DNA of 64,000 nucleotides from an uncultured delta proteobacterium (GTDB taxonomy: Bacteria > Desulfobacterota > RBG-13-43-22), in NCBI GenBank assembly GCA_963843145.1, contig CAWJJC010000027.1:288001-352000 (forward strand), read 5' to 3'. Every line of letters begins with the position of its first letter. The first letter of the stretch is position 1. Under the pieces are notes generated by a model, which was given only the letters and a program-made list of their open reading frames with translations, searched no databases and was not told the DNA's origin. The position numbers and the translations under genes were made by a program. This document shows positions 22,639 to 39,293 of this stretch, piece by piece.

Positions 22639-22938
22639 TTAGACGGCGGCCTCCAGCCTGGCTATTCTTTCCTCCATCTTACCCCAAGAGCTTGTTTCCT
22701 GTGCTAACTGGGCCTTAGAGCTGAAGGCCGGGTTGTTTACCCACCAGTCCATGCCCATTTCCTTGGCTTTATCAACGGAACAGATAACCAGTCGGATCTG
22801 GATCGTCAGCAACTCGACGTCGACGAGGTTGATCCTGATATCGCCGGCGATAACGATGCCTTTGTCCAGGATCCTTTCGAGAAGATCCGCCAAGTTCGTA
22901 CTTTCCAGAGAATGTCGAGCGCCGCGTTGGATTGCCAT
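22639..22938 (-). CDS. gvpJ: Gas vesicle protein GvpJ (GvpA family)
   Basis: [19 protein letters not shown]...VELLTIQIRLVICSVDKAKEMGMDWW. Confidence 0.88.
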   Translation of the reverse strand: MAIQRGARHSLESTNLADLLERILDKGIVIAGDIRINLVDVELLTIQIRLVICSVDKAKEMGMDWWVNNPAFSSKAQLAQETSSWGKMEERIARLEAAV

Positions 22939-22966
22939 TTTCTTTTCCCCCTTTTTCAACCGCCTG

Positions 22967-23368
22967 CTATAAGATTTTCCCCAAAGGTCCCAAATCCAAA
23001 TTCAAATCCTCTTCTTCGAGACCGAATTCGCAGGAGATCCTTTTAATTTCCTCGGACTGCCGCATCAGGGTGAACCCGAGACGCTCAATCTCTTCATCCG
23101 TAAGGCCTCCCCCCTCAATCCTGCGGATCGCCTGCTTCTCCAGCAGTTCGTGGAGGAGTTTGACCACGGTCAGCACAAGTTGCGCCAGGCCATTTTTCTT
23201 TTTATCATGATCGAGGTTCAGCCGCCTTGAAGATACCCCCATGGCCCGCGGCGCCATGGTTTTTGCAAAATCGCTTATGGCCGGCGACTCCACCCTCCTT
23301 AAAAGACGCGAGGGGTCTCCTAACTCCTGACTCCTAACTCCTAACTCCTCACCTGTGCTCATGTTCAT
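22967..23368 (-). CDS. gvpK: Gas vesicle protein GvpK
   Basis: GLAQLVLTVVKLLHELLEKQAIRR...EEIERLG...DLNLDLGPLG. Confidence 0.93.
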   Translation of the reverse strand: MNMSTGEELGVRSQELGDPSRLLRRVESPAISDFAKTMAPRAMGVSSRRLNLDHDKKKNGLAQLVLTVVKLLHELLEKQAIRRIEGGGLTDEEIERLGFTLMRQSEEIKRISCEFGLEEEDLNLDLGPLGKIL

Positions 23369-23559
23369 CGTACCAGCCCTTCCTCCCGCCGGGCCGTTTC
23401 CACAGAGGTCAGGATGACCTGCAGGCCCAAGTAAACCAGATCGATGTCCGCGACCGAGATCATGACATCGCCCACGATCACAGCGCCCTTATTGAGGACC
23501 CGGTCCAGGACCTCGCAAAGACTCACGTGCTCCTTTTCATCCAGGGCATAATCAGGCAT
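23365..23559 (-). CDS. Gas vesicle protein, GvpA family (GvpS/GvpM-like)
   Basis: SLCEVLDRVLNKGAVIVGDVMISVADIDLVYLGLQVILTS. Confidence 0.88.
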   Translation of the reverse strand: MPDYALDEKEHVSLCEVLDRVLNKGAVIVGDVMISVADIDLVYLGLQVILTSVETARREEGLVR

Positions 23560-25639
23560 AGTGCACTTTACTTTCTATGATTTCGGGTTTGATTCGAATG
23601 CCTATATTTTCGATGTTTTTCGCGGTCTCCGGATTTTTGCCGATGCCCGCCCTGGCCCGCCCCTGAGGGAGGAGGGAACGACGACTTTTCCCCAATCTAC
23701 TTTTATCGTGGGAGGGATAAAGAAGCTGCCCGAGGGCCTGGAGATTTTCGATTCCCCGGGGATCGCTCTGCCAAAACACCACTGTCCGGCTTAGGCCGGA
23801 GAAAGCCGAGGCAAACCGGTCCTGGACGGCGGACTCCCGACGGAAAAGAGACGCGCAGAGGGGATCAAGGTCTTCGGGCGTGGCCATGTTCAAAAAAAGG
23901 CCGGCAACCGGAATGCCCAGACGTCCACAGGCGGCCACCAGATCCTTCGTTTCCGCCAAGGACATCTCCGAGAGGATACTGACGGGGTAAAGGGCCGCTT
24001 GGGCCGGATCGCGCAAAATTGCCCGCAAACGCTTAAGGTCCTTGGATAGTCTGACCAGGCGTTGAGAAATCACCGGCAATTGGAAGATTTTCCGGTACTT
24101 CAGCAAGAGATTAAATAACGCCTTCAACCATTTTTCGATGTTCTCCGGCAATTCCAAAAGTCGGATCAGGTGACCTGTCGGCGCCGCGTCGAGGACCAGG
24201 AGATCGTAGCCCTTCGGGGTCAGGAAATCCATCACCGCCGCCAAAGCCATTAGTTCATCGATCCCCGGGGGCGACAGGTCCATAATCCGTTCCATGACCT
24301 CCCGATCAAAAGCCAAATCGAGATTCGGCATCAACTGCGAGAGAAATTGCGACAGGTCCTTCCGGTACTGATTTTTCAGGGCATCAAAATCGGCTCTGGC
24401 GTCCATTTCCATGGCCCAGAGCCCCGGCGCTGCCTGCTGTGGCTGGGGACCGAGCGGCAGGGCCAGACAATCGGCCAGGGAATGGGCGGGATCGGCGGAA
24501 AAAAGTAGAATTCGTTTTCCCGGATAGATCTCGGCCAGACGCAGTGCGGTGGCGCAAGCCAGGGTGGTCTTGCCGACCCCTCCTTTACCGGCAAAGACGA
24601 GCAGGGCCTTATCCGGCGGCGGCCAGGAGATCGGGTTGGTCACGCGCGGAGGTACCGGAGGCAGGAGCGGCTGTCCCTCCCCGGGAGACGGGGCCAATTC
24701 CCTCACCCCAGTCCAGAAGGACCGCAGTGCTTTCCGGCCTCTGATTTCCTGGGGAACCATGGGAATCCCCCAGAGCAGGAGGTCGGAAAAAGCCGGTTCG
24801 CCGAAGATGCGGGCCAACTCCCGCAACTGGTGTGAGCGGATTTGGCGGCAGAGCAAACACTTGCTTTCCGGATAAAGACGGTTGATGATCACATCCGTGA
24901 TGCCGATACCGCGGCGCCGCAATTCCCGGATCAGATCTCGAGTCTCCTCGATACACAGGGCCTCGGCCAGCATGACCGGGACAAAGAGGCAACGCTGGTG
25001 GTCCTTGAGGAGTTTTTCCGTTTCCTGGACGGAGGCGGCGAGTCCTTCGATGAAATGATCGAGATCATCCCGCTCATAGAATCCCCGGAAAAGTTTCTTC
25101 ATATAACGATGTTTGGCCAGGAGGGCGTCAAGGGCCTCCAGCCAGGTCCGAATCAGCGCGGGCATCTCCATGAGGCGCAGGGTATGTCCCGTCGGCGCCG
25201 TATCCATGATAATCCGATCATAGGTCCCTTGCTTGACCCAGCGGCTGATCTCCAGGAAGGCTATCAATTCATCCATTCCCGGAAGAGAAAGTCCCAAAAA
25301 GCGATTGAGGTCCTCCTCATCCAGGAAGGTCCCGCGGGAGGCGATTTCCATGAGCCGCTGTTTATTTTTTTCCTGGAAGGTGTTGAGCTGGGCCTGAGCG
25401 TCCAATTCCAGGACCTTCAGATTGGGCGGCGGCGTGGCCCCGGCGAAGCTGTCTTGAAGAGAATGGGCCGGATCGGTGGAGACCAGGAGCAGGGAGCTTT
25501 GGGAATATTGGACGGCGAGATCAAGCGCCGCGGCCGCCGCGGCCGTTGTTTTTCCCACCCCGCCTTTGCCGCCGAACAGCAGGACCTGCCTGTTTACCTC
25601 GGTCAAAAAACCCGGTTTCCCTGCCGCAGCGACCATCAA
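23552..25639 (-). CDS. Tandem-domain ArsA/Get3 (TRC40) family ATPase
   Basis: Two GKGGVGKTT Walker A motifs, two DPAHSL, DTAPTGH and DAAPTGH switch II motifs. Confidence 0.92.
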   Translation of the reverse strand: MMVAAAGKPGFLTEVNRQVLLFGGKGGVGKTTAAAAAALDLAVQYSQSSLLLVSTDPAHSLQDSFAGATPPPNLKVLELDAQAQLNTFQEKNKQRLMEIASRGTFLDEEDLNRFLGLSLPGMDELIAFLEISRWVKQGTYDRIIMDTAPTGHTLRLMEMPALIRTWLEALDALLAKHRYMKKLFRGFYERDDLDHFIEGLAASVQETEKLLKDHQRCLFVPVMLAEALCIEETRDLIRELRRRGIGITDVIINRLYPESKCLLCRQIRSHQLRELARIFGEPAFSDLLLWGIPMVPQEIRGRKALRSFWTGVRELAPSPGEGQPLLPPVPPRVTNPISWPPPDKALLVFAGKGGVGKTTLACATALRLAEIYPGKRILLFSADPAHSLADCLALPLGPQPQQAAPGLWAMEMDARADFDALKNQYRKDLSQFLSQLMPNLDLAFDREVMERIMDLSPPGIDELMALAAVMDFLTPKGYDLLVLDAAPTGHLIRLLELPENIEKWLKALFNLLLKYRKIFQLPVISQRLVRLSKDLKRLRAILRDPAQAALYPVSILSEMSLAETKDLVAACGRLGIPVAGLFLNMATPEDLDPLCASLFRRESAVQDRFASAFSGLSRTVVFWQSDPRGIENLQALGQLLYPSHDKSRLGKSRRSLLPQGRARAGIGKNPETAKNIENIGIRIKPEIIESKVHYA

Positions 25640-25706: not shown

Positions 25707-25985
25707 CTAATGGATCACAAGACGCTCGTCTTCGCCGTCCTCTTCTTCCTCGCTGCCCTCCCCTTCCTTGATGGCGTCGAGCCGGTCGAGGAGGACCTTT
25801 TCCGCGGCGTCGAATTCCTCTTCAGTCATCTTGTCCGTTTCCAGCATCATATACAGTTCGCTCAACTGGGCGGTGATCCTGTCGGCCTCCCCGGCCTGTT
25901 CCTCCCGGGCGGCGTTGAGGATCTCGTTAAAGACCCAGTACAATCCCTTAAAGGGAGAGATCAAGATATCGTCGACGATGAACAT
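25707..25985 (-). CDS. gvpG: Gas vesicle protein GvpG
   Basis: DDILISPFKGLYWVFNEI...LSELYMMLE...EEEFDAAEKVLLDRL. Confidence 0.88.
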   Translation of the reverse strand: MFIVDDILISPFKGLYWVFNEILNAAREEQAGEADRITAQLSELYMMLETDKMTEEEFDAAEKVLLDRLDAIKEGEGSEEEEDGEDERLVIH

Positions 25986-26016
25986 ATCGTTCCTCTCTTC
26001 CTGCCCGGACCGGTCC

Positions 26017-26778
26017 TCACAACCTCAGCTCCACGTCCACGAAGTGGTGAGGGGCCCAGGGGCCGTTGAAATCGAAGGAAAAATTGTTGTCGAACCCGCC
26101 GGCCGCCTCGAAGATGGCCGCCTCGAAGGCCTTCTCGACCACTTCCCGCTTTACCAGGCAGGCCAGGTTCATGACCTCTTGTTCGTTCCGGGAGATGTTC
26201 CTCTTGATTTCAGCACAGCAGGAAGACAGGATCGACTCGACTCTTTCCGTGTGTTCCTCCCGATCTTCCTGAAGGACCCGGTCGAAAAGACGCCCGACTT
26301 CGATTTTATCTTCCTGAGAGGGGACACGATTGCTGCCGAGGAAATGATCCCTGGCCGCCCGGATCTCGGCATGGGTGTTAACGAAATACTCAAAAATATT
26401 CGGCACATCCCAGCTCACCCGTAACCCCATCTCCACTTTGCCCTGCACCCGGCGAAGCTGTTCGGCGAATGCTTTCCGGTTCAGGGACAAGATGCGTTTG
26501 ATCTCCTTGGCCCCTTCGGCGATAATGCCGAAAGTGATGGGTAAGGGGGTCTCATCCGCCATGAGGCGTTTCAGAACGGCCTGGTGGGCCCCGATATGAC
26601 GGCGTTCCGGACGAATTTTCCCATTGCTGAAATTACTGACCACCGCGCCGACCTGGTTATCGGCTATGAGGAAGACCTGTTCTCCCTCGATGCCGATAGG
26701 ACCGTACTCCCGGTCCCCTGCCGCCGGGATGACGGCATAGAGATATTTCCCTTCCTTATTCGTTTTCACTGCGCCCAT
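26017..26778 (-). CDS. gvpF: Gas vesicle protein GvpF/GvpL family
   Basis: YLYAVI, HQAVL, PITFG, VEMGLRVSW, GPWAPHHFV. Confidence 0.92.
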   Translation of the reverse strand: MGAVKTNKEGKYLYAVIPAAGDREYGPIGIEGEQVFLIADNQVGAVVSNFSNGKIRPERRHIGAHQAVLKRLMADETPLPITFGIIAEGAKEIKRILSLNRKAFAEQLRRVQGKVEMGLRVSWDVPNIFEYFVNTHAEIRAARDHFLGSNRVPSQEDKIEVGRLFDRVLQEDREEHTERVESILSSCCAEIKRNISRNEQEVMNLACLVKREVVEKAFEAAIFEAAGGFDNNFSFDFNGPWAPHHFVDVELRL

Positions 26779-26947: not shown

Positions 26948-27130
26948 TTAAAGCTCGGCTTCGCCGTCACGCATCAGTTTAAGGAATTTGAGCGACCTGA
27001 GACGGCCTTCATCCAAACAAACCTCCAACAGGGCGCTGCAGACATAACACTTGATCTGCCCTGCGTAATCGCTGTAAACCTCATCATCCAGCTCCAGGCT
27101 GAAACCGCAGGATAGACAATTGATCTTCAT
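26948..27130 (-). CDS. Small zinc-ribbon protein (CxxC...CxxC)
   Basis: MKINCLSCGFSLELDDEVYSDYAGQIKCYVCSALLEV; AAGGAAGG RBS. Confidence 0.7.
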   Translation of the reverse strand: MKINCLSCGFSLELDDEVYSDYAGQIKCYVCSALLEVCLDEGRLRSLKFLKLMRDGEAEL

Positions 27131-27366
27131 GAGCTTATTTCCTTCCTTAATTGAAGTCGTTCCGCCTGCCCGCTCCATTGGTGGACCAGCCAGGAAAAAC
27201 GGATTCGCCGATTGACCAGGTCAGTGATTTCACGTCGGACCCGCCGCGCCTCTCCGGCGCCCAGGAAGAACCCCGAAGGCGTCCGGCAGGCCCGGTGACC
27301 CGGCAGGCAACGGTTCGTCGGAATGTGGTGTGAATCATAGATCGTCAGCATATCGTCCCCGCCCTT

Positions 27367-27691
27367 TCAGTATTTAATCTTGAATGGCCCTGTCGATGTT
27401 CGAGGCGCCACCGTCGTCGGAGGATCGTCTTGTGACCGGGGGGCGGCAGCGCCGAATCCCCTTGGCTTCCAGGGCCGTAACGATTCCCAGTCTTTCCGCC
27501 TCGATGTCTCGGAAGCGCTGATCAATATGCTGCACTTTTTCCAGGGCGCTCTGTTTCTCCTTTCCCCGACGGAACTTTTCCATTTCGAGGATACTGAGCT
27601 TCATATAAGCCTTGTAAGGAATCGTGCCTTCGTCCGCACGACCGGAGAGCGTTTTGATATCCTGTACGCCTCGCAAAATCTTCTTCGTCAT
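27367..27691 (-). CDS. GvpV-like gas vesicle accessory protein (frameshift near 27460)
   Basis: Directly after gvpN; AYMKLSILEMEKFRRGKE coiled coil; one G fewer in AAGGGGA gives the terminus PRTSTGPFKIKY*. Confidence 0.7.
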
Positions 27692-28686
27692 GGGCGTGCC
27701 TCTTTACCTTTCTCTTTGGTGGGTTTTGCGGACCCGCAGAAATGGTGGATCACTTCTTCCACCTTCTCCATCATAACCGGCTGACCGCCCCGGGTGACCT
27801 TGGCGGTATCCGTGGCCAGGACATCCCGGCAGATCATCTGAAAAAACAGATCATCCCCCCGAACGCGCCGTTTCTGAGAGGCCAGGATCCGGCCGATAGC
27901 GATCCCCGCCCGGATAGTGGGCCGATTATTATTTACCCCGAAATTCCTCAATTCCCTGACGATGTCCACAATCCGCTCGACATCTTCCCGAGGGAGTCCT
28001 GACTTTTTCATGACGATCAGGCGTTCCGTATCCCGGTCATAGTGCTCCAACTGGATAGTAATCAGACGGTCCATCAGGGCATCCTGCGTCTTGTGGACCC
28101 CGGCGTATTCTTCGGGGTTGGAGGTAAAGATCGCCCGGAACTCGGGATGCACGGCCATGTATCCCTCTCCGGAGCGGCGTAGTTTCGGCAGATTCAGAAT
28201 CCCTTCGGAAAGGACACTCAACAGGGGGTTGTTGGCTTCCGGACGGGAACGATTGAATTCATCATAAATGAGGATTTCCCCGGTCTGACAGGCGGTGGTC
28301 AACCGGTTGTCCACCCAAAGGCTTTTCATTTCTTCCTCGGTCTTCAGGACCGAGTGAATATAATTGTCGATCAGTTTATTTTTTCTATATCCGGCGTCCT
28401 TGCCGACGAGATCGGAACTGCCGAATTCATCATCCCCGTGGATCAGGGTGACGGGACGTCCCAGTTGGGAGGCCACATGAAAGGCCAGGGTCGTTTTTCC
28501 CGTCCCCGCTACCCCGGAAAAATGGACGGGATACCCGGCGACCAGATAGGCTAAGGCCCGCTGGGTGACTTGGTCCACATAGGGAGAAGAAACAAAGGTG
28601 TCGCCGGCCTCGGGCTGAATGCTGTCTTCCCCGACCGCTACGCGCACAGTGGACGTGCTGACCGCTCTTAAGACATTTTTAGACAT
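27688..28686 (-). CDS. gvpN: Gas vesicle AAA+ ATPase GvpN
   Basis: GYPVHFSGVAGTGKTT, YDEFNRSRPEANN, FTSNPEEYAGVH, DALMDR. Confidence 0.95.
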   Translation of the reverse strand: MSKNVLRAVSTSTVRVAVGEDSIQPEAGDTFVSSPYVDQVTQRALAYLVAGYPVHFSGVAGTGKTTLAFHVASQLGRPVTLIHGDDEFGSSDLVGKDAGYRKNKLIDNYIHSVLKTEEEMKSLWVDNRLTTACQTGEILIYDEFNRSRPEANNPLLSVLSEGILNLPKLRRSGEGYMAVHPEFRAIFTSNPEEYAGVHKTQDALMDRLITIQLEHYDRDTERLIVMKKSGLPREDVERIVDIVRELRNFGVNNNRPTIRAGIAIGRILASQKRRVRGDDLFFQMICRDVLATDTAKVTRGGQPVMMEKVEEVIHHFCGSAKPTKEKGKEARP

Positions 28687-29062
28687 GAACTTCCTTCTCC
28701 TTCCAGATTTGATCGATAGTCCACCCGGTTCCCCGGCATTTCAAACAAGCCATGGCCGGGGCCGAGGCATCATCGCCCGTCCCCCGGCACTGGGGACAGG
28801 AAACCATAGGCCCCGCGGGCCGGGAGACAACCCCCTTCCCGCCGCAGGTGGTGCAGGTAAGCGTCTTGATGGCCCCCGAACCTTGGCAATGGGCGCAAGG
28901 GGCATAGGGCGTCTGAACCCGGACCTTCCCGCTTCCCCCGCAAACGCAACAGGCCGAAAGGGAAGACATGATCGCGAAAGGATCTTTGCCCCGACCGCGA
29001 CAAAAGGCGCAAGTCAGTTCCTCAAATACCACCGGGTCACGGCTTATGCGTGCTTGGACCAT
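28679..29062 (-). CDS. Stand-alone DnaJ-type zinc finger protein
   Basis: Six CxxCxGxG repeats, no J-domain HPD motif. Confidence 0.85.
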   Translation of the reverse strand: MVQARISRDPVVFEELTCAFCRGRGKDPFAIMSSLSACCVCGGSGKVRVQTPYAPCAHCQGSGAIKTLTCTTCGGKGVVSRPAGPMVSCPQCRGTGDDASAPAMACLKCRGTGWTIDQIWKEKEVHV

Positions 29063-29270
29063 ACCAGCCTCCTGAAGAACCTTTTTCCGACCGGGGAAAT
29101 GCGGGGTTTACTTCCTGCCCCATTTCGCCCTGGTCATCGCTTGGGCGGGCTTTTCACCCCGTTACTCTTCTCTTTATGTTTCTGAAACGGCATCGAGGCG
29201 CTGACAGACGGCCGGGCCTTGCTCTTGGGGATTTTGACCACGGGGCTTCAGGCGCTGCGATGCCTTCTTT

Positions 29271-29588
29271 TCATCTGTTTTCGGGGTTTTCATGAAGGGG
29301 ACCGGGGGCTTTCCCGCCTTGAACTCCGGCGCTGCCGGTCTTCTCCGGGCTGCCTCCACTAGGCCACGGTTCCTTTTTCGGAACGGGCCGTGATTTTCCC
29401 GGACCCTCGCCGCGCCAGGCAAGCCGGGCGCCCCTCAGGTCGTCCGCCGTCTCCCGGCGCAAGGCCGCAACTGCCCTGGTCAGATCCCCGGCTCCGCGCG
29501 TCAAATTATTCATCAGCGCGCCCCGGGCGTCCCGCAGGGCTTCAACCTCCCTGCGCAACCGCGTCAGGTCATTCGTCAACTGACCCAT
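29271..29588 (-). CDS. GvpC-like helical protein, copy 2 (low-complexity tail probably frameshifted and extending to about 29160)
   Basis: MGQLTNDLTRLRREVEALRDARGALM...ETADDLRGARLAW; paralog of 29960..30241; follows gvpA. Confidence 0.65.
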   Translation of the reverse strand: MGQLTNDLTRLRREVEALRDARGALMNNLTRGAGDLTRAVAALRRETADDLRGARLAWRGEGPGKSRPVPKKEPWPSGGSPEKTGSAGVQGGKAPGPLHENPENR

Positions 29589-29637
29589 AATTATCCTCCT
29601 CCTTTGACTTTGATCTTTTTCCGCCACCAGGGCCCCT

Positions 29638-29666
29638 AAAAGGCGAGGGCTTTTGGAGCCCCCGCC
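29638..29666 (-). terminator. Rho-independent terminator/stability hairpin after gvpA copy 2
   Basis: Minus strand GGCGGGGGCT-CCAAA-AGCCCTCGCC-TTTT. Confidence 0.7.
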
Positions 29667-29689
29667 CCGCGGGAATCCTTCTTTCAGTC

Positions 29690-29908
29690 TTAGGCAGGAG
29701 CGGCGGCGCTGGCCGTCAACCCAATGGCCTCGGCATACTTGAGATAAGTTTCAACCGAAGCAATCACTACCCTGGCCTCGATGGAAAGCAGTTCAATACC
29801 CACCAGAGAGACCTTCACCCAGGCGTCGATCACGATACCCTTGTCCAGTATGCGGTCGACAACTTCTGCCAAACTGGATGAATCCGTTGATTTCTGAACC
29901 TTAGCCAT
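29690..29908 (-). CDS. gvpA: Major gas vesicle structural protein GvpA, copy 2
   Basis: [64 protein letters not shown]. Confidence 0.97.
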
Positions 29909-29959
29909 AATCATTTCCTCCTTTTAATTCACAACAGGGTTAGCGTTTCATGATTCCTT

Positions 29960-30241
29960 TTAAATGCACCAGGCCCGACGGGCGCCTGCCAGATCGGTGG
30001 CGGTCTCTTTTCTCATCCGGCCGACCTTTTTCTCGATGCCCGCTACGAAGGATCTCAGCTCTCTCTTGGTTTTTTTGGCCATGGCGGTGTGGGCCTTGGC
30101 GAAAGAAGCCTGCATGGCTGAAACCTCGGTGGCCAGATCCTTGGCCCCGCGCGCCAGATCCTGCATCAGCGCCCCCCGATCGCTCCGCAGAGCATCAACC
30201 TCTCCGCGTAAACGGGTCATGTCATCAGTCAGTTTTCCCAT
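29960..30241 (-). CDS. GvpC-like helical protein, copy 1
   Basis: Amphipathic helical 93-aa ORF directly after gvpA, at the position of gvpC in Serratia-type clusters. Confidence 0.7.
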   Translation of the reverse strand: MGKLTDDMTRLRGEVDALRSDRGALMQDLARGAKDLATEVSAMQASFAKAHTAMAKKTKRELRSFVAGIEKKVGRMRKETATDLAGARRAWCI

Positions 30242-30286
30242 ATTGATTTTCCTTCCTTTGATCTTTTCCTGAAACCAGGGACTTCG

Positions 30287-30315
30287 AAAAAGCGGGGGCC
30301 GGAAAAAGCCCCCGC
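30287..30315 (-). terminator. Rho-independent terminator/stability hairpin after gvpA copy 1
   Basis: Minus strand GCGGGGGC-loop-GCCCCCGC-TTTTT. Confidence 0.75.
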
Positions 30316-30339
30316 CCTATGGGAATCCTTCTTTCAGTC

Positions 30340-30558: not shown

Positions 30559-30633
30559 AATAATTTCCTCCTTTTGATGTGGTGATGATTTTTTTGAAAA
30601 ACAAGTGCAGGCCTGCCTGACATCCTTTAGTAA

Positions 30634-31402: not shown

Positions 31403-32899
31403 GATGCACCTCAGGTTTAAAACGGATAGGCATTTTGAGGGTAAAGACACTTCCCCTGCCTTCCAGGCTCTCTACTTCAATGGTCCCCTTGTGCTGACGC
31501 ATGATGGAGTAGCAAATAGACAGGCCCAGGCCTGTCCCTTTGCCCGCCTGAGAAGTGGTGAAGAAAGGATCGAAGATTTTGTCGAGGTTTCCCTGGGAGA
31601 TCCCGCAACCCGTGTCGCTGATCTGTATCCGGACCTCGGAATCGACTGTCTGGACATCAATGTTCAACAGGCCCCCGTTGGGCATGGCGTTTATAGCGTT
31701 TAGAAAAAGATTCATGAATACCTGCTGCAGAAGCGTGACCGCACCATCCACCATCAGGGTCTCCTGGAAAAGAAGACCCTGATTTCGATCTTGTGAATCT
31801 TGGCATGGTGGGTAATCAGGGCCAGGGTTTCTTTGATCAGGGGAACGATATTCACTAGGGTAAACCGGGGCCTCGAAGAAGGGTAGGAATATTTGAGGAG
31901 ACTTTCGATGATCGCCGAGGTCCGCTGGATTCCTTTATAAATCTTTTCTGCGCATTCCCTGGGAAATTCCGGTAATCCCTCTTCTTCCATGAGAAACTGG
32001 GCCGAGGAATAACAAATGGCCAGGGGATTCCTGATTTCATGGGCGATGCCCCCGGCCATAACCCCCAGAGCGGCCATTTTTTGGGATTGAAGGAGTTCCA
32101 TTTCGAATTTCCTCTTTTCCGTCAAATCCCGGCCTACGGCCACGATACCTACTGTTTGATCGCTACTGTCCCTCAGGGGGGAGAAGACCCAGGATACCGG
32201 GATAAAAGTCGATCGGCTGGTTCTTAATAAACACTCCTTCATCCGGGCGCCCTTCCAGGTTTCGATACGGGGAAAAATCTCCTGGATTTCCTTTCGATCC
32301 TCGGCGGTACAGAAATCGGTAAAATCGCGTTCCCGCGCTTCCGCGGCGGAATAACCGGAAATTCTTTCGGCGGCGCCGTTCCAGGTCTGGATCCTGCCCT
32401 TTCGGTCCATGGACAAAATCAAATCATTGGCGCTCTCCACAATGCTGGCCAGATGACCTTCCACCCGTCGCATCTCCTCGCTGAGGCGCGCTTCCTCGGT
32501 CACATCATCCATCAGGAGGATAACCCCCTCCACCTTTTCCCGGGAGGAGAAGGGCAGGAGACTGTAGTAATAAATCCGGGTGGGCACCCCGGGGGCGCGG
32601 TAGGTCATCCGTTCTCCCTTGGCCGGTTGATTGGTTTCAATGACCTCTCGCATCCGCTTGCCGATGTCCATCTGTTCGAAGATCACGGGGGGAAAAACTT
32701 TTTCCAGTTTGTAGCCGAGGGTATTCGTTCGAGTCCTTTGACTCTTTTCGAGAAAATTGCGGTTGGCCGAGACAATACGCATGTCTGGACCAATCAGGAG
32801 GACGGATGAGGGTATGGCGTCCAGAAGCATGGTGTAGAGCTGCTCAAACTGGTCCGGAAATTCCTGGAGGGTCGGATCAGGGGGTTTGGATTTGATCAT
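31392..32899 (-). CDS. PAS-PAS histidine kinase (GvrB-like position), frameshift near 31770
   Basis: GIAHEIRNPL in 31754..32968; NAINAM, DTGCGI and GTGLGL in 31392..31754. Confidence 0.85.
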
Positions 32900-34436
32900 T
32901 CCTTCCCTTCCTGCCTCGATCCGACTTCTGGGCGGATGGTCCGGCGGGTGCGAGATCGGTGGCGACAAAATTATAAGGCGGCCAGGGACCGCTGATCAGG
33001 GCCTTGGCCTCTCCATCCTTCGGCATTCGCCGGAAGGCTTCCTGGAAGAGGCTGACTTTATTTCCCGGCACCAGGAAATAGAGGGACAAGATGACCGACC
33101 CGTTTTTGGCGGCCGTCTCGGTCCGGTGTCTGCCGTACAGACCGGAAAAGGCCTGGATGGTGCGATCCAGAAGCATCTGTTGCCGGCGGGAGTTCTCAGC
33201 CCTCATCCGGTAATGGGTCTTCCGCAGGGTGAGGTAATCCTGTCCGTTGACCGGCTGTTTTTCCGACGGTGACTCCACCGCCTCCTCGGGCAACAGGATA
33301 CGGATTCCCATTTCGACCCGACCGGCCAGTATATCGAGCAGCGCCTGGTATTGACGCCTCCTCTCTCCCAGGATCTTGCGGATCGCTTCCTTGCCGTTGA
33401 GGAAACAGCCGTAGCGCAGGGGAACAACCGCCTGCCGGCGATGAAGGTCCTCCATAACCCGGCTATAGATCAGGAGTTCGGAAACAGGGGGCGCCCCTTC
33501 CTCGGCCGACATCTCCGACACGGCGGCGCACAGGCCATGAACGGCGACGAAGGATATCTCCCGGCCCTTCACCCCCGTCAGAGGCCCGCCGGGGACGACC
33601 GGATCTTTGGTGATACCGTAGAGCAGATAGGTCATCATCCCTGACGTTTCGAGAACCGGGGCGAAGTGGTAAGGCGGCCAGGGACCGGAAAGCTCAAGCC
33701 GAAGCCCCTGGGCACCATGATCCCTGTTCCATTCGCCCAGCAGGCTTTCCAGGATATCTACGGATCGGTCGGGAACAAGAAAAGCGCCATGGAAAAACAT
33801 CTCACCGTCCATTCCCGTCACCTCCCGCGACAGGAGGCGACGTTCACTGAAAGACGAAGACGTCTCCTGAAAGATCCTCAGGATTTCCTCCCCTCTCTCC
33901 CTGAGCCGGGAGGTCAGCTCCCGCTCTACGGCCCCTTTGATTTTTTGTTCCAGAAAATAGCGCTTCCCCGGAGAAAGGCCGTCTAATTGTTCTTTTTCCG
34001 CCGCTAACCGCGCGTCCAGGATCTGCCTCCGGGCCTGCGGTTTGTCCACATAAGCCTTGAGGCTCCATTCCTTTTTCCCGGCCGTATCCCGGAAAAAGCT
34101 TGACCAGGTACCCTGATGCCGCCTCAGCGGCACCTCCAGCGCCTCGAGGGAAGAAAAGACCGTGCCAAAGCGAACGGGCAGCACGGGGACCTGCTCCATG
34201 ACGTCCATGATGACCGCCTCGTGACGCAGCGCCCGAGATCCGATCCAGGCCAGATCTTCCAGGCGGGTCTGGGCTTCCGGTCCGCAGAAATCCACCAAGG
34301 CGACCTCGGAGAAGATGGCGGCCACGTCCCCGACGATTTCGGCAGCGAGGGGATGCTCCCCGCCGATCCCCGTTCCCTTGACCTCCGGAAGAGGATTTCC
34401 CGGCGTCAGGCAAAAAAGATAGATTCCGGTGCTCAC
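32877..34436 (-). CDS. Two GvpF/GvpL domains read as one ORF (fusion, or two genes merged by an indel near 33640)
   Basis: Two units, each YL(F/L)...P(V/L)R(F/Y)G...SGPWPPY(H/N)F. Confidence 0.85.
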   Translation of the reverse strand: MSTGIYLFCLTPGNPLPEVKGTGIGGEHPLAAEIVGDVAAIFSEVALVDFCGPEAQTRLEDLAWIGSRALRHEAVIMDVMEQVPVLPVRFGTVFSSLEALEVPLRRHQGTWSSFFRDTAGKKEWSLKAYVDKPQARRQILDARLAAEKEQLDGLSPGKRYFLEQKIKGAVERELTSRLRERGEEILRIFQETSSSFSERRLLSREVTGMDGEMFFHGAFLVPDRSVDILESLLGEWNRDHGAQGLRLELSGPWPPYHFAPVLETSGMMTYLLYGITKDPVVPGGPLTGVKGREISFVAVHGLCAAVSEMSAEEGAPPVSELLIYSRVMEDLHRRQAVVPLRYGCFLNGKEAIRKILGERRRQYQALLDILAGRVEMGIRILLPEEAVESPSEKQPVNGQDYLTLRKTHYRMRAENSRRQQMLLDRTIQAFSGLYGRHRTETAAKNGSVILSLYFLVPGNKVSLFQEAFRRMPKDGEAKALISGPWPPYNFVATDLAPAGPSAQKSDRGRKGRNDQIQTP

Positions 34437-36568
34437 CCCATCCGCCCGCGCACTTCCTCCAGGGCCTCCTCGATATCCTCAGGCCGGATGAGGATTTCCG
34501 GTTCCCCGGCCCCGGACTTCTCCAGGGTCTTTACGGCCCGGCGAACCGCCGTCATGGCGGCTTGGCGCATGACCGCGGCGATGTCGGCCCCGGTGAAGCC
34601 TTCGGTCCTTTCTGCCAGTTTCGTGCTGTGAATATTTTTAGCTAGAGGTTTCTGACGAAAATGCACCACAAATATCTCCTTCCGATCTGCTTGGGTGGGC
34701 ACCATCATCTCGACAATATCGTCGAAGCGGCCCGGTCGGAGGACCGCGGCATCCAAAATATCTAAACGATTGGTCGCCCCCAGGACGAGAACTCCTCGAA
34801 GTTCGTCGATGCCGTCAAACTCAGCCAAAAACTGGCTGAGGATCCGTTCGGAGACATGGGAATCCGAAGCCCCGGCGCTCCGGGTCGGAACGAGCGCGTC
34901 GATCTCGTCAAAAAAGATGATGCAGGGCGCCGCCTGTCTGGCTTTGTGAAAGATCTCCCGGAGCCCCTTCTCCGACTCTCCGACCCATTTCGACATCAAG
35001 GCCGGCCCTTTGACGGAGATGAAATTTACCTGGCTTTCCGTGGCAATCGCCTTGGCCATCATCGTCTTGCCGCATCCCGGAGGACCGGCAAGAAGAATCC
35101 CCTTGGGCGGGGTCACGCCCCCCTTTTCAAAAAGGTGCGGATACTTCAGCGGCCACTCCACGGCCTCGACGAGGCGCTGTTTCAAAGAAGCGAGGCCTCC
35201 GACGTCTCCCCAGTGCACATTCGGAGATTCGACAAAGACCTCCCGGATGGCGGATGGTTCGATCTCCCGCAGGGCGGCCAGGAAGTCTTCCATGCGCACC
35301 TCGAGTTTCGAGAGGGTTTCGTAAGGAATCCCGGCCTGCCCGAAATCGATCTCCCCCATGATCTGGCGCAGGCAGCTCATGGCCGCTTCCCGGCAGAGGG
35401 CCTCTAAATCCGCTCCGACGAAACCGTGGGTGATTTCCGCCAGGTGATCCAGGTGGACGTCTTCGGCCAGGGGCATCCCCCGGCTGTGAATCTCCAGGAT
35501 CTCCAGACGGCCGCGCCGGTCCGGGATGGGAATAACGATCTCCCGGTCAAAGCGGCCCGGTCGCCGCAGGGCCGGGTCAAGGGCATTGGGAATATTGGTA
35601 GCGGCAATGACGATGACGTTCTGTCTCTTGTTCAGACCGTCCATGAGGGCCAGAAGCTGGGCGACGACCCTTTTTTCCACGTCCCCGACCACGTTTTCCC
35701 GGCGGGGGGCGATGGCGTCGATTTCGTCAAGAAAGAGGATGCTCGGTCCCTTCCGGGTCGCCTCTTCGAAGATCTTCCGCAGGTGGGCCTCGCTTTCACC
35801 ATAAAACTTGTGGATAATCTCCGGTCCGCTGATGGAAAAGAAATTGGCCTCCGTCTCGTGAGCAATGGCGCGGGCGATGAGGGTCTTCCCGCACCCCGGA
35901 GGACCATAGAGCAGCACTCCTTTGGGGGCATCGATCCCCAGGCGTTCAAAAACCTCGGGATAGCGCAGCGGCAGTTCAATCATCTCCCGGATGCGCTGAA
36001 GCTGGGATTTCAAACCGCCGATGTCTTCATAGGCCAGGGTCCTGCCGACCCCTTCTTCTCCTTGCGACTTGCCGATAACCAGAATGGTGGTCGGGTTGAT
36101 GATCACCGGCCCCTTGGGCGTCACGGATTCGACTTTGAAGAAAGCGGCCCGGCTGCCGAACAGGGCCGCCTGGATCTTGGCCCCCTCCATGACCGGCAGC
36201 CCATCGAGGAGGCTCCCGATGTATTTCAGGTCCCGCTCCGCCGGGGTGACGTTGGTCGGCGTCAGGACGATCCGTTCCGCCGGACGGCATTTCAATTTGC
36301 CGATTTTCACCATTTCATCAAGCCCGACGCCGGCGTTCTCCCGGGTCAATCCGTCCAGTTGGACTCGGGACTGGCCGCGGATTTCCTTAAAAGCGGGCAT
36401 GACTTTGCAGAGGGCCTTGCGCTTTCCCTCGACTTCCACCGTGTCGCCGACAGCCGCCTGGAGTCGATCGAGATCTTCCGGTCCCATCCGGGCTAAAGCG
36501 CGTCCGACGTCCTTGGTCAGGGCTTCGGTTACTTTCAGCTTGATGAACGGTTTTTCAGTCTCTTTCAT
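34433..36568 (-). CDS. CDC48/VCP family AAA+ ATPase (GvpZ-like position)
   Basis: N-domain plus two AAA modules: GPPGCGKT twice, FLDEID/FFDEID, LRRPGRFD. Confidence 0.95.
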   Translation of the reverse strand: MKETEKPFIKLKVTEALTKDVGRALARMGPEDLDRLQAAVGDTVEVEGKRKALCKVMPAFKEIRGQSRVQLDGLTRENAGVGLDEMVKIGKLKCRPAERIVLTPTNVTPAERDLKYIGSLLDGLPVMEGAKIQAALFGSRAAFFKVESVTPKGPVIINPTTILVIGKSQGEEGVGRTLAYEDIGGLKSQLQRIREMIELPLRYPEVFERLGIDAPKGVLLYGPPGCGKTLIARAIAHETEANFFSISGPEIIHKFYGESEAHLRKIFEEATRKGPSILFLDEIDAIAPRRENVVGDVEKRVVAQLLALMDGLNKRQNVIVIAATNIPNALDPALRRPGRFDREIVIPIPDRRGRLEILEIHSRGMPLAEDVHLDHLAEITHGFVGADLEALCREAAMSCLRQIMGEIDFGQAGIPYETLSKLEVRMEDFLAALREIEPSAIREVFVESPNVHWGDVGGLASLKQRLVEAVEWPLKYPHLFEKGGVTPPKGILLAGPPGCGKTMMAKAIATESQVNFISVKGPALMSKWVGESEKGLREIFHKARQAAPCIIFFDEIDALVPTRSAGASDSHVSERILSQFLAEFDGIDELRGVLVLGATNRLDILDAAVLRPGRFDDIVEMMVPTQADRKEIFVVHFRQKPLAKNIHSTKLAERTEGFTGADIAAVMRQAAMTAVRRAVKTLEKSGAGEPEILIRPEDIEEALEEVRGRMG

Positions 36569-36579
36569 AATCCCTCACT

Positions 36580-37269
36580 TTAGGTCTTTTCACATCGGAT
36601 GGTCACAATGCCGTTGTTGCAGGTTACCTTGATCCTCTCCTCGGAAAGGCTGTGACGCAACAGGATCTCTTTCCGGTATTTTTTCCCGCCTTTCTTGGCG
36701 AAGACCGTCAGGACGTCGTCCCGGACTTCAATTTTGATATCCTCCGGCCCCACCCCCGGCATTTCGGCGATCAAGGTGGTGCCGGACTCATCCTCGAAGA
36801 CATCGAGGGGAGGTTCGTGGATTTCCTGAACCACCGCCTCACCGGTTTTCTTGTCTTTGCGTATGTTGCCAAAAGGTTCCACCCGGATTTGATCGTCCTG
36901 GCCCCCTAAACCCGTTTTCATGGTAAATCCATAGACCCCTTTGAGGCCGCCTTCTTTTGACGAGAAGGTAAATTCCCCTTTATCAGACAGGGATTCCCCT
37001 TTTTCCGAAATAGCATTGAGCTTTTCAGCTATGTCCGTCAAACCGGTGAGGAACCGGCTGAAACGGTTCTCGCCGGCCGTCTTTTCCCCGCTTCCACGGT
37101 CCGCCCGGTCGCTCCCCGGACGGGAAGCCCGATCTCGAGCGTGCTTCTCTCCTGCCTCGGCCAGGTCCCCAAGGTTATTCAAAAATCCGGTCAGGCTATT
37201 AAAAACGCCGCCTCCAAATCCCGCTTGTTCCCCTTCGCCGTTTTTGAGGTCCGGCCTACGTTTTTTCAT
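36580..37269 (-). CDS. Hsp20/alpha-crystallin protein (GvpH-like)
   Basis: GVYGFT...EPFGN, EPPLDVFE, IAEMPGV, NNGIVTI. Confidence 0.85.
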   Translation of the reverse strand: MKKRRPDLKNGEGEQAGFGGGVFNSLTGFLNNLGDLAEAGEKHARDRASRPGSDRADRGSGEKTAGENRFSRFLTGLTDIAEKLNAISEKGESLSDKGEFTFSSKEGGLKGVYGFTMKTGLGGQDDQIRVEPFGNIRKDKKTGEAVVQEIHEPPLDVFEDESGTTLIAEMPGVGPEDIKIEVRDDVLTVFAKKGGKKYRKEILLRHSLSEERIKVTCNNGIVTIRCEKT

Positions 37270-38677
37270 TGGTTCCTCCGTTTATTCGGATTCCAAATTT
37301 TTTCACTTTCGTATGAATGGTCTTATAGTCGACCTTCAACAACCTGGCCGCCTGGGCCTTGTTTCCTCCTGTTGTTTTCAGCACTTCCGTGAGAACCTTT
37401 TTTTCCACGTCCAGAACGTTCATTCGAACAATTTCGGCGAGGGACGTATGCTCCCAAGGCGTTCTCTGAACCTTCGAGGCATAGGCCATTTCCGGCGCCG
37501 AAGCCCGCTTGATGCTGAGATTCTTTTCGGTGATCACCTCCTTGACCACCAGGGCGGCCTGCCGGATTACCGATCGGAGCTGGCGGACATTTCCCGGCCA
37601 GTCATAAGACATCAAGGTCTCCACCGCCCCGTCCGTGAAACCCTTGACCAACTTGTTCAATTCGATATTGGCCAGATCCAGAAAACGCTTGGCCAGGTAA
37701 GGAATATCGTCTTTTCTCTCTCGGAGGGGGGGGATAATAATCGTAAACTCGCTCAGACGGTAATAGAGATCCTTTCGAAAAGTACCCGCAGCACTCATTT
37801 GCTGAAGGTCCTGATTGGTCGCCACGATGATCCGGATATCCACGTCCACGGGTTTCGACCCGCCGATCCGATAGAGCTTCCGATCTTGAATAACCCGGAG
37901 GAACTTCGCCTGAGAACCGGGGGGCATATTGGCGATCTCATCCATGAACAGGGTCCCGCCGTGGGCCAGTTCAAACTTGCCAATTTTCTGGCGCTCCGCT
38001 CCGGTGAACGATCCCTTTTCATGACCAAACAGTTCGCTCTCCAACAGCGGTTCGGGAATGGCACCGCAATCCACCGGCATAAAGGTCGCGTCCCTCCGCT
38101 GGCTGTCTTCATGTATGGCCTCGGCAACCAGTTCTTTTCCCGTGCCCGTCTCGCCCAGGATGACCACAGAGAAGTCCGATTTCGATACCCGGTGGACCTC
38201 GGCCACAAGCCGGCTGACCATTTCGCTGGGTCCCATGCGCTGGATAAGGCCAAAGTTTCCCTGATAGCCGTCTTTTTTGGATTTCAGGGCCCTCTTTAAT
38301 TTTCCTTCCGCCAGGGCGCGGCGGGTAATCCTGACCACCTCGTCATTGTCGAAGGGTTTGGACAAATAATCAAAGGCCCCTATCTTTATGGCCTCCACGG
38401 CCTGGTGAATATCGGCGTAGGCCGTGACCAGCACCACCGGCAGGTCGTCGTCAATGGTCTTAATTTTTTTCAGGACCTCCATGCCGTTGAGGCCAGGCAT
38501 GCGGATATCCAGGAGCACGGCATCCGGGGTATCGAATAAAATCCTCTGGATGGCCTGATCTCCGTCAGGAGCGGTGATGACTTTGATTCCCTCATTTTCC
38601 AGGATATGGATCAGAATCTTTCTGATTCCCTCTTCATCATCGACGACCAGAATACGTCCTATAAAATCATCCTTCAT
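37256..38677 (-). CDS. NtrC-family sigma54-dependent response regulator (GvrA-like)
   Basis: REC domain, GETGTGKE, ESELFGHEKGSFTGA, WPGNVRQL, Fis-type HTH. Confidence 0.95.
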   Translation of the reverse strand: MKDDFIGRILVVDDEEGIRKILIHILENEGIKVITAPDGDQAIQRILFDTPDAVLLDIRMPGLNGMEVLKKIKTIDDDLPVVLVTAYADIHQAVEAIKIGAFDYLSKPFDNDEVVRITRRALAEGKLKRALKSKKDGYQGNFGLIQRMGPSEMVSRLVAEVHRVSKSDFSVVILGETGTGKELVAEAIHEDSQRRDATFMPVDCGAIPEPLLESELFGHEKGSFTGAERQKIGKFELAHGGTLFMDEIANMPPGSQAKFLRVIQDRKLYRIGGSKPVDVDIRIIVATNQDLQQMSAAGTFRKDLYYRLSEFTIIIPPLRERKDDIPYLAKRFLDLANIELNKLVKGFTDGAVETLMSYDWPGNVRQLRSVIRQAALVVKEVITEKNLSIKRASAPEMAYASKVQRTPWEHTSLAEIVRMNVLDVEKKVLTEVLKTTGGNKAQAARLLKVDYKTIHTKVKKFGIRINGGTNEKT

Positions 38678-38678
38678 A

Positions 38679-39293
38679 TCATCTTTTTCCTTTATTTGAA
38701 GGACGATTAATGGGATAAAGAATATGAATATCTTCCGGCAGGAAATCGGCAACATTATGCAGCATCCCCAGGAAAAGGATGCCTGTCTCCCCCGCCTGCA
38801 GGGTCGTTGCGATCCTCGACGCAATGAACGCGTCCCGCTTCCTCAGCAGAAGATCACTGGCCGCCTTTTGACTGGCCTCGATCTCGATGGCCTTTTTTAC
38901 CTCGCCGGATTCGAGAACCTTTTTGATGAGCCGATACTCTTCGATGAGCAGTTCCGCCGATTCCGTGCCCATGATCGTCGCCCCTTTTTCCATAAGGCGG
39001 ACCAAGAGTTGGTGATTGGGACTTCCTTTTCTTGCTATTTCAGTTATTATCTCCATCTCTTTATCACACACCGGCAGGCCATCCTGGTAAACGCGGGTTT
39101 GTCCATAGGAAAGAGAAAGGGTATCGAGGGTGTCTTCTATGCCGGACCAAAACTTTTCGATAAGCTGGTGTTTACGTCTCCAGGTTCGCTCACCGAGCTT
39201 TTGGAGGGTGACCTTTTTGACCGATTCGCTCAGTGTCCCCATATCTGACTCGGTGTGGACAATAGGAATGTAGATAAGCGTTCTGGAAGTCAT
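38679..39293 (-). CDS. Conserved-looking hypothetical protein, possible TraB/TIKI/ChaN-like fold
   Basis: IPIVH, VYQDG, RDAFIASRI, LFLGMLH; first gene of the regulatory operon. Confidence 0.65.
   Translation of the reverse strand: MTSRTLIYIPIVHTESDMGTLSESVKKVTLQKLGERTWRRKHQLIEKFWSGIEDTLDTLSLSYGQTRVYQDGLPVCDKEMEIITEIARKGSPNHQLLVRLMEKGATIMGTESAELLIEEYRLIKKVLESGEVKKAIEIEASQKAASDLLLRKRDAFIASRIATTLQAGETGILFLGMLHNVADFLPEDIHILYPINRPSNKGKR

Follow-up and report, generated by a model that had tools for sequence, protein, structure and literature searches.

Gas vesicle (gvp) gene clusters of the kind described for Serratia sp. ATCC 39006 comprise two operons, gvpA1-C-N-V-F1-G-W-A2-K-X-A3-Y and gvrA-gvpH-Z-F2-F3-gvrB-gvrC (PMC9501494, PMC4982088). 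In Serratia, GvrA and sigma-54 act at a -24/-12 element before gvpA1, and rpoN mutants lose their gas vesicles (PMC4982088, PMC11778176). Delta-proteobacterial clusters are built on the Serratia plan; in Desulfomonile tiedjei and Psychromonas ingrahamii the two operons have changed places (PMC4982088, 2016). Castillo and Saier 2010 (PMC2963123) described two-domain ArsA homologues inside gvp clusters that also carry hsp20, and proposed that they energise a step of biogenesis. Hurt et al. 2023 (PMC10344784) placed 15 clusters in E. coli; the Desulfocicer (Desulfobacterium) vacuolatum cluster was among the vesicle producers, and has been screened as an acoustic reporter (PMC10344784). Here we describe a gvp locus in a stretch of 64,000 nucleotides (nt), referred to as the window, from an uncultured delta proteobacterium (assembly GCA_963843145.1, contig CAWJJC010000027.1, positions 288,001 to 352,000). 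All coordinates below are those of the window.

Between 22639 and 39293, on the minus strand throughout, the window carries a real and complete set of gvp genes in an anaerobic Syntrophales-like bacterium. Gene families were assigned with Pfam and NCBIfam at their curated cut-offs. GvpA, gvpN, PF06386 (three times), PF05120, PF05121 and the PF00741 genes gvpJ and gvpS were all found above these cut-offs; gvpN, gvpF/L, gvpG, gvpK and the GvpA-like gvpJ and gvpS(M) are the core set as named in PMC9501494. GvpA matched the solved gas vesicle shell protein (PDB 8gbs, E 4.3e-32). The 5.35-Mb genome has four Gas_vesicle-domain genes, and all of them lie inside this locus. We consider it probable that the locus is chromosomal and of the two-operon 'proteobacterial' type of Serratia sp. 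ATCC 39006, in the variant that is frequent among anaerobes, including Syntrophales and Desulfobacterales.

The regulatory block, in the order unk204-gvrA(NtrC)-sHsp-Cdc48-GvpF/L x2-kinase-receiver, precedes the structural block. The latter runs gvpA-C-A-C-ZnF-N-V-orf74-Zn ribbon-F-G-ArsA/Get3-like-S-K-J downstream of a sigma-54 promoter. A gap of 463 nt, which contains the sigma-54 site, separates the end of gvrC from gvpA1. In the direction of transcription, the features are (lengths in amino acids, aa):

39353-39381, minus: sigma-70-like promoter candidate, weak, TTGACC-17-TATTAT, 10/12 positions, ~60 nt before unk204
38679-39293, minus: unk204, 204 aa, opens the regulatory operon and stops 1 nt short of the gvrA ATG
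37256-38677, minus: gvrA, NtrC-type sigma-54 activator (Pfam Sigma54_activat 226 bits, Response_reg 110.7, HTH_8 40.9)
36580-37269, minus: small heat-shock protein (sHsp) in the GvpH position (PF00011 28 bits, cut-off 20.8; NF041800 113 bits, under the 140-bit cut-off)
34433-36568, minus: CDC48-family double-ring AAA+ ATPase (Cdc48), 711 aa, in the Serratia gvpZ position (TIGR01243 899.8 bits, cut-off 802.65)
32877-34436, minus: gvpF2-gvpF3, one fused frame of 519 aa (PF06386 in 2 stretches, 310 bits)
31392-32968, minus: gvrB, PAS-PAS-HisKA + HATPase_c kinase (Pfam), split into 404 + 120 aa
31022-31450, minus: gvrC, single-domain response regulator (PF00072 75.1 bits), syntenic in related loci
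~30853-30882, minus: candidate GvrA enhancer, dyad GGAAT-N4-ATTCC, then a second TTCCATAG, in a conserved alignment block
30634-30649, minus: sigma-54 -24/-12 element TGGCAC-N5-TTGCT, 75 nt before gvpA1
30340-30558, minus: gvpA1, major shell protein (PF00741 63.5 bits, cut-off 25; NF006874 135.5 bits, cut-off 100)
29960-30241, minus: 93-aa GvpC-like gene, so named by position only; homologue after gvpA in 24/31 loci
29690-29914, minus: gvpA2, protein identical to that of gvpA1
29110-29627, minus: second GvpC-like gene, degraded, open frame of 118 aa, a relative of the 93-aa gene
28679-29062, minus: zinc-finger (ZnF) protein, 127 aa (PF00684 43.6 bits, cut-off 32.7); its end overlaps the gvpN start
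27688-28686, minus: gvpN, AAA+ ATPase (TIGR02640 337.1 bits, cut-off 266.8)
27370-27691, minus: gene in the gvpV position, 105 aa, frameshifted; homologue between gvpN and gvpF1 in 43/43 loci
27127-27351, minus: orf74, small basic protein, 74 aa, between gvpV and the Zn ribbon gene; its stop overlaps the Zn ribbon start (ATGA)
26948-27130, minus: Zn ribbon protein, 60 aa, two CXXC pairs (PF13717 21.8 bits, below the cut-off of 30.3); likely start MKINC
26017-26778, minus: gvpF1, 253 aa (PF06386 201.9 bits)
25707-25985, minus: gvpG (PF05120 49.9 bits, cut-off 30.6)
23552-25639, minus: ArsA/Get3-family tandem (pseudo-dimeric) ATPase, 695 aa, two P-loops (PF02374 376 bits, 2 stretches); its end overlaps the gvpS start
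23365-23559, minus: gvpS, GvpM/GvpA2-like (PF00741 61.2 bits; best NCBIfam model halo_gas_GvpM)
22967-23368, minus: gvpK (PF05121 110.7 bits)
22639-22959, minus: gvpJ, GvpA3-like (PF00741 63.5 bits), end of the structural operon

A first-pass annotation of the same letters had called a complete gvp cluster here. The family searches bear this out, and each of its genes was found where it had been placed, on the minus strand. The genes are all present, but the two GvpF/L genes form one fused frame, the kinase is split, gvpV is frameshifted and the second gvpC is degraded; orf74 had been missed, and the genes called gvpC have no Pfam Gas_vesicle_C match. An Rfam scan of 20000-43000 gave 0 matches at E <= 0.1.

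Like Serratia 39006, the window has two operons and an NtrC-type GvrA, together with a sigma-54 -24/-12 promoter before gvpA. The regulatory operons share a family order of activator, sHsp, one gene, two GvpF/L, kinase-type and receiver-type, and the kinase and receiver were matched to Serratia GvrB and GvrC by this order. The structural operons share the backbone A-C-N-V-F-G-..-S(A2)-K-J(A3). It had been claimed that both blocks follow the Serratia gene order, and comparison with PMC9501494 and PMC4982088 upheld this. In contrast to Serratia, where the structural operon comes first, the regulatory operon of the window lies upstream of the structural one and opens with the extra gene unk204. 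The ArsA/Get3-like ATPase occupies the gvpW slot, and no genes are found at the gvpX and gvpY slots. ZnF, orf74 and the Zn ribbon gene are interposed, and the gvpA-C unit is duplicated. The swap of blocks that the first-pass annotation had pointed out is present, but the inversion is already published for Desulfomonile tiedjei and Psychromonas ingrahamii (PMC4982088). Desulfomonile tiedjei DCB-1 has, by that account, a deltaproteobacterial Serratia-pattern cluster with inverted operons (Tashiro et al. 2016, PMC4982088); it also has a homologue of ZnF (P0335, 62% identity).

Related loci were collected by scanning the ArsA-like protein against one genome per species, which gave 60 loci; the window proteins were then compared with these by tblastn. 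The closest loci come from metagenome-assembled genomes labelled Syntrophaceae, Syntrophus, Syntrophales and delta proteobacterium, with best-segment identities of the ArsA-like protein up to 83%. The remoter ones carry the labels Desulfobacterales, Desulfatiglandales, Geobacter, Victivallales/Lentisphaerae, Rectinemataceae, Rokubacteria/Methylomirabilota, Acidobacteria and Nitrospinia; an isolate, Desulfocicer vacuolatum DSM 3385, is also among the 60. The related loci are always co-directional and have one architecture: Cdc48-F2-F3-kinase-receiver, followed by gvpA-C-(A-C)-ZnF-N-V-orf74-Zn ribbon-F1-G-ArsA-like-S-K-J. GvpG lies directly before the ArsA-like gene in 53/54 loci with enough upstream flank (in the exception, L004, it is ~670 nt away), and GvpS directly after it in 48/49 (exception L018). 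Between gvpN and gvpF1, the Zn ribbon gene was found in 35/43 loci and orf74 in 20/43. Among the 31 loci spanning gvpA to gvpJ, 18 have ZnF, 24 a GvpC-like gene and 10 two copies of gvpA. ZnF mostly stands just before gvpN, and has another place in the cluster in L041, L042 and L055. The large genes of the window cluster are intact and 66-95% identical to those of the relatives (Cdc48 of 711 aa, ArsA-like protein of 695 aa, GvpN, GvpF1 and gvrA).

The same architecture and order thus recur in 60 loci across many anaerobe lineages, and the extra genes are not this genome's own. The claim of at least four added components did not hold, the genes being regular constituents of a cluster type with a wide distribution. 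Nor are the extras new as such: they are conserved and partly published, the association of ArsA with gvp genes being already in print (PMC2963123).

In the locus labelled Rectinemataceae (L018, 13194-17450), the ArsA-type cluster has no S-K-J behind the ArsA-like gene, but a short distance further downstream there is another, divergent group of gvpF, gvpJ, gvpA-like, gvpK and gvpF.

The cluster of D. vacuolatum DSM 3385 (L042/L064) shares with the window the run Cdc48-F2-F3-kinase-receiver-gvpA-C-C-N-V-F-G-ArsA-like-S-K-J, as well as unk204 before gvrA (50% identity) and ZnF (57% identity). Its proteins are, however, only 31-92% identical to those of the window, it has a single gvpA copy, and its ZnF stands after gvpJ and not before gvpN. 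No orf74 or Zn ribbon gene was found in it by tblastn, and no strict GG-N10-GC element within 250 nt of gvpA. The window cluster had also been put forward as a candidate acoustic reporter. A member of its cluster type, that of D. vacuolatum, has already been screened as one and makes vesicles in E. coli (PMC10344784).

The flanks of the related loci stop short of the head of the regulatory operon, and unk204 was sought in five source genomes. It was found in four of them, each time directly before the NtrC-type gene and with a kinase further upstream. We also drew up a phylogenetic profile of 41 genomes, namely the window genome and 40 relatives; as kin are not independent, the profile is descriptive. 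GvpN was above its curated cut-off in 9/41 genomes: the window genome, 6/17 of other genera of the same family and 2/20 of other families of the phylum. unk204 (E <= 1e-5) was present in exactly these nine and absent from the other 32, and lay ~10 kb from gvpN wherever both share a contig. From this co-occurrence with gvpN in 41 genomes, unk204 is therefore a gvp-linked gene and not a chance neighbour. Strong ZnF matches were found beside gvpN in 8/9 GvpN-positive genomes. The weak ZnF matches elsewhere were in frames of ~370-396 aa, the size of DnaJ proper.

unk204 has no Pfam or NCBIfam match. It has 966 homologues of similar length, all devoid of Pfam domains; the named ones are without exception 'hypothetical'. 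Modelling with AlphaFold2 on a 34-row alignment gave a confident structure (pLDDT 87.7, pTM 0.83). Foldseek with this model returned nothing in the PDB at E <= 0.001, the top row being ChaN at E 0.16. VIA-align ranked ChaN (2g5g) first, with Z 9.7 (155 residues aligned, rmsd 3.7), followed by HopBA1 (Z 8.1), and lower down the C-terminal region of the Pasteurella toxin (Z 6.8), EreC (Z 6.4) and RRSP (Z 5.5). We take ChaN, HopBA1, EreC, RRSP and the Pasteurella toxin region to be members of the TIKI/TraB/ChaN/erythromycin-esterase superfamily, presumably with paired His-containing motifs. The invariant residues of unk204, H13 and H179, are compatible with such paired motifs. The predicted fold of unk204 is thus ChaN/TIKI/TraB-like, and its placement in the superfamily is a lead.

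The ArsA-like protein scored 381 bits against TIGR00345 (cut-off 135; 2 stretches) and passes this model of the GET3/ArsA/TRC40 subfamily. Identity as the arsenical pump-driving ATPase ArsA was rejected, TIGR04291 giving only 181 bits against a cut-off of 650. Among the Pfam domains of the window, no ars, acr3 or cstA genes were found near the gene. Both halves of the protein have the P-loop GKGGVGKTT, which is invariant in 33 sequences; the CXXC pair (C261, C264) is likewise invariant among the 33 aligned. The best solved relative is Chlamydomonas ARSA1 (5zme, E 5.5e-52), with both halves matched, and the arsenite-pump ArsA structures come behind it (9nbl, E 2.4e-39; 1f48, E 2.7e-36). A complex prediction for the ArsA-like protein (33-row alignment, 2 ATP) with GvpS gave a score of 0.00, which is uninformative either way.

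ArsA homologues outside ars clusters, devoid of the metalloid-binding cysteines, are described in PMC2963123. The 'Cluster 4' and 'Cluster 6' ArsA proteins of that paper resemble the present one in having ~640 aa and two domains and in lying among gvp and hsp20 genes and not beside ars. They comprise 8 + 2 proteins from cyanobacteria, Bacteroidetes/Chlorobi, Acidobacteria and one deltaproteobacterium, whereas here the G-ArsA-S slot is found in 60 loci. In a literature search on gas vesicles and ArsA, only PMC2963123 treated the ArsA-gvp link. With Get3/TRC40 and ARSA1, which target tail-anchored membrane proteins, the protein shares tandem P-loop domains, 5zme being its best solved relative. 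Unlike the Get3/TRC40 case, there is no membrane insertion machinery in the window locus, and the presumed clients, with putative binding, are GvpA-family proteins of a lipid-free organelle.

In its translation, ZnF has the CXXCXGXG motif of the DnaJ cysteine-rich domain six times; the protein has 187 homologues. Pfam gave no J-domain match at E <= 0.01, and the DnaJ equivalog models scored 32-40 bits against cut-offs of 338-556. A DnaJ/Hsp40 chaperone was hence rejected as its identity, the PF00684 cysteine-rich domain being all that was found. A search of the literature on gas vesicles and DnaJ-type zinc fingers (titles and abstract starts) turned up no paper on such a gene in gvp clusters.

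orf74 has 19 homologous frames of 64-91 aa, most of them 74-75, with a conserved start, ML(T)I.DS.HI.TNR, and further motifs. Its model is a single long helix (residues 30-73), the N-terminus being of low confidence. There was no Pfam, NCBIfam or usable ESM Atlas match. Judged from these homologous frames, orf74 is a real gene, and it was absent from the earlier gene list. New here are unk204, as a gvp-specific family with a predicted ChaN/TIKI-like fold, and the gene orf74.

In the structural block, the gvpA-C unit is a 650-nt tandem duplication, the two copies sharing 94% identity in a 272-nt repeat core. Neither copy of gvpA is disrupted, and their protein is identical to those of several relatives. 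PF01304 (Gas_vesicle_C, 33-residue repeat) gave no match at E <= 0.01 in either GvpC-like protein (Pfam), and neither had a sequence match to any PDB chain, GvpC included. A weak ESM Atlas lead (0.89) pointed to a cyanobacterial cluster that has Gas_vesicle_C on 24% of its members. The 'gvpC' genes are GvpC-like by position only. The GvpV-position protein has 240 homologues, of which all the named ones are labelled 'hypothetical'; it may correspond to the GvpV of Serratia and Anabaena, by its position only.

Contigs of a wetland metatranscriptome (run X5) matched gvpA2 at 29603-29843 (5 differences/241 nt) and the 93-aa GvpC-like gene at 30067-30293 (1 difference/227 nt). They hint that the cluster of a close relative was present in the RNA library, which falls short of proof of transcription.

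The gvrA protein reads as a receiver, an AAA+ sigma-54 interaction domain and a Fis-type helix-turn-helix, with the likely start at ATG 38677. Cdc48 has the domains CDC48_N, CDC48_2, AAA x2 and AAA_lid_3 x2 (Pfam) and qualifies for the CDC48/VAT family; it is 65-92% identical to its counterparts in related loci. A sigma-54 promoter before gvpA had been predicted, and was borne out by a perfect site at 30634-30649. It is the sole perfect TGGCAC-N5-TTGCW match in the 64-kb window, and rpoN was found in the genome. A -24/-12-like element agreeing at 9/11 positions or more lies 66-103 nt before gvpA in 20/30 loci, compared with 1.7% of random 250-nt windows. An alignment of the region upstream of gvpA (window + 7 relatives) also showed conservation of the dyad GGAAT-N4-ATTCC and of the ribosome-binding site. 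Sigma-70-like sites in the region were not above shuffles (11 vs 9.0 +/- 3.1), and a terminator scan was likewise not above shuffles.

Further kinase genes adjoin the locus on both sides:

39575-41110, minus: flanking hybrid sensor kinase, REC-PAS-HisKA-HATPase (Pfam domains), 511 aa, beyond the range of the first-pass annotation
41194-42692, minus: PAS-PAS-HisKA_2-HATPase kinase just upstream of the flanking kinase, split across frames into four pieces (188, 78, 95 and 134 aa)
20064-22259, minus: 731-aa PAS-HisKA-HATPase-receiver hybrid kinase, directly downstream of gvpJ

Syntenic copies of the flanking kinase, 64-72% identical, lie directly upstream of unk204 in 3 close relatives (L061-L063), and the gene probably borders the cluster on its upstream side. 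The kinase in four pieces represents further frame changes of the draft, or a real pseudogene. Most of the 14 best-matching loci (e.g., L038, L039, L040, L045, L027, L032, L033 and L050) have a hybrid kinase after gvpJ that resembles the 731-aa one (32-53% identity in partial alignments), and the 731-aa kinase may be a further regulatory input.

On the Serratia model, the first operon, probably read from a sigma-70-type promoter, would supply unk204, GvrA, sHsp, the Cdc48-type unfoldase, two GvpF/L proteins, GvrB and GvrC. By analogy with Serratia, GvrB and GvrC would control GvrA. The latter would bind the conserved dyad upstream of gvpA and open the sigma-54 promoter before it. By family membership, the second operon encodes GvpA (from two identical copies), small GvpC-like proteins, GvpN, GvpV, GvpF1, GvpG, GvpS, GvpK and GvpJ. 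The J-domain-less DnaJ-type ZnF, orf74, the Zn ribbon protein and the tandem ArsA/Get3 ATPase, encoded among the structural genes, would from their conservation be helpers. Together with sHsp and Cdc48, they would most likely form a chaperone/quality-control set that keeps the very hydrophobic GvpA-family subunits in solution and passes them on to the growing vesicle.

Several of the genes are broken as assembled. In gvrB, alignment with relatives showed the window to be one base short near 31761-31765; the kinase is a single frame of 493-543 aa in 6/6 relatives read, and the junction is continuous in 29/29. The gvpV frameshift falls at a C6 run (27438-27443), and the conserved C-terminus ...GPFKI(R/K)Y (...GPFKIKY in the window) is in another frame. 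Because of this frameshift, the gvpV homologues (105-112 aa) cover only ~81% of the window frame. There is no stop at the gvpF2/gvpF3 junction here, while the genes are separate in 18/18 relatives. The second GvpC-like gene, for which relatives (n = 3) encode frames of 201-292 aa, has an internal in-frame deletion and at least three frame changes in its K/E/P-rich tail, across three frames.

The frequency of such breaks was assessed across the draft. We took 245 open frames of at least 200 aa from 400 kb of a related genome (G002), of which 94 had orthologues at >=65% identity and >=70% coverage; the remaining 151 were dropped by these thresholds. Seven of the 94 conserved long genes change frame in the window genome, with 10 changes in 109.9 kb on six contigs (C5, C20, C22, C25, C27 and C28), a rate far above that of a free-living bacterium. 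The genome is 97.9% complete and 6.9% contaminated, in 32 contigs, figures that suggest a metagenome-type assembly. Methylation-linked basecalling errors at CCWGG were considered and rejected; 5/10 sites have the motif, but it is common (6.4 per kb) and P = 0.12. No public sequencing run contained as much as half of the words sampled from 29100-32000; the highest share was 0.14. Contigs were obtained from four runs, short and at low depth, and none of them bridges 31761-31765 or the breaks in the gvpC2 tail. Frame errors are frequent in this draft, and its gene calls need care and frameshift-aware handling.

Several points weigh against an intact cluster of the Serratia type. The locus is read here from its genes, and its expression and the formation of vesicles are predictions; so are the roles of the helper genes, taken from family and synteny. 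Cdc48, the GvpV-position gene and the GvpC-like genes were matched to Serratia names by position, not sequence. As assembled, gvrB and gvpV are broken, and both are required for full gas vesicles in Serratia (PMC4982088). The 16-kb cluster has at least 5 frame changes compared with 1.5 expected at the genome rate (Poisson P = 0.017), and the internal deletion in the second GvpC-like gene is inexplicable by sequencing error. The genome-wide frame changes showed no significant link to homopolymers (4/10 sites with a run of >=5 vs 30% of controls). Finally, GvpN was above its cut-off in 0/3 other congeneric species (77, 90 and 94% complete); because of this, the cluster looks patchy and could be on its way out. 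Such a decaying remnant, with gvrB, gvpV and the second gvpC-like gene truly mutated and the F2/F3 stop genuinely lost, would make no normal gas vesicles, or only small bicones as in Serratia gvpV mutants. The split kinase and the fused F2-F3, seen in 0/29 and 0/18 relatives, are unique to the window and agree with decay, as does the kinase in four pieces nearby. We nevertheless consider this explanation unlikely. The frame changes are genome-wide, at a frequency far above the expectation for a free-living 5.3-Mb bacterium, and when the repetitive gvpC tail is left out, the cluster has 2 breaks vs 1.4 expected (P = 0.41). Moreover, all the large genes and both gvpA copies are intact and close or identical to those of relatives. 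The gvrB and gvpV breaks do not exceed the genome background and are probably errors; most likely they are indel errors of the draft assembly, as are part of the frame changes in the second gvpC-like gene. The organism's actual cluster is probably intact, the second GvpC-like gene being probably truly degraded. The first-pass annotation had spoken of a functional system, which goes too far for an assembly with gvrB and gvpV frameshifted, though assembly error is the likelier cause.

An intact, vesicle-building cluster could also contain genes with no part in assembly, the ArsA-like protein, ZnF, orf74, the Zn ribbon protein and unk204 being passengers or regulators engaged, e.g., in metal or redox handling. 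That the helper roles are predicted would allow this, and tblastn misses ZnF in 13/31, orf74 in 23/43 and the Zn ribbon gene in 8/43 loci. The shifting position of ZnF in L041, L042 and L055, and the dispensability of several function-unassigned Serratia gvp genes (PMC4982088), point the same way. Yet the slot of the ArsA-like gene is fixed on both its gvpG and gvpS sides in many lineages, with its end overlapping the gvpS start, and there are no ars, acr3 or cstA genes nearby. unk204 co-occurs perfectly with gvpN, and ZnF stays associated with the cluster even in loci where it has moved. Taking these together, we regard passengers as very improbable. A more specific form of the helper reading is that the ArsA-like protein, ZnF, Cdc48, sHsp and unk204 form a pathway devoted to the proteostasis and delivery of the GvpA-family subunits, which are extremely hydrophobic. 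In such a pathway, a bacterial Get3-type 'targeting factor' would have been recruited to load a lipid-free, gas-facing protein shell, and not a membrane; unk204, whose translation would be coupled to that of gvrA, could feed into the GvrA/B/C switch in a signal-sensing or processing role. We offer this combination tentatively, as a rather doubtful possibility. The preferred explanation remains the two-operon cluster of Serratia type, probably intact in the organism, with its conserved set of predicted helpers.

Other genes of the window were recorded as well. About 4 kb upstream of the cluster is a broken insertion sequence-like element. At 6991-11941 there is a gene set of the kind expected in strict anaerobes that use flavin-based electron bifurcation. 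The bacterial alpha-2-macroglobulin and the penicillin-binding protein that it adjoins are a known pairing, and both are intact.

43413-43917, plus: IS91-type transposase zinc-binding domain (PF14319), then small family-less frames
6991-11941, minus: NiFe hydrogenase large/small subunit-like, MvhD/FlpD-like and HdrA-like flavoprotein genes with 4Fe-4S domains; TusA adjoins
54334-62633, minus: bacterial alpha-2-macroglobulin, 1864 aa, adjoining a PBP1C-type penicillin-binding protein

The locus is one more example of an architecture already described, and several of its conserved helper genes are still unstudied. What it contributes lies in the comparison: the co-occurrence of the helpers with gvp genes has now been counted across 60 loci and 41 genomes. 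The helpers are testable straight away in the cluster of D. vacuolatum, already functional in E. coli. They are obvious candidates for why many gvp clusters fail in foreign hosts, a matter of relevance to acoustic reporter genes.

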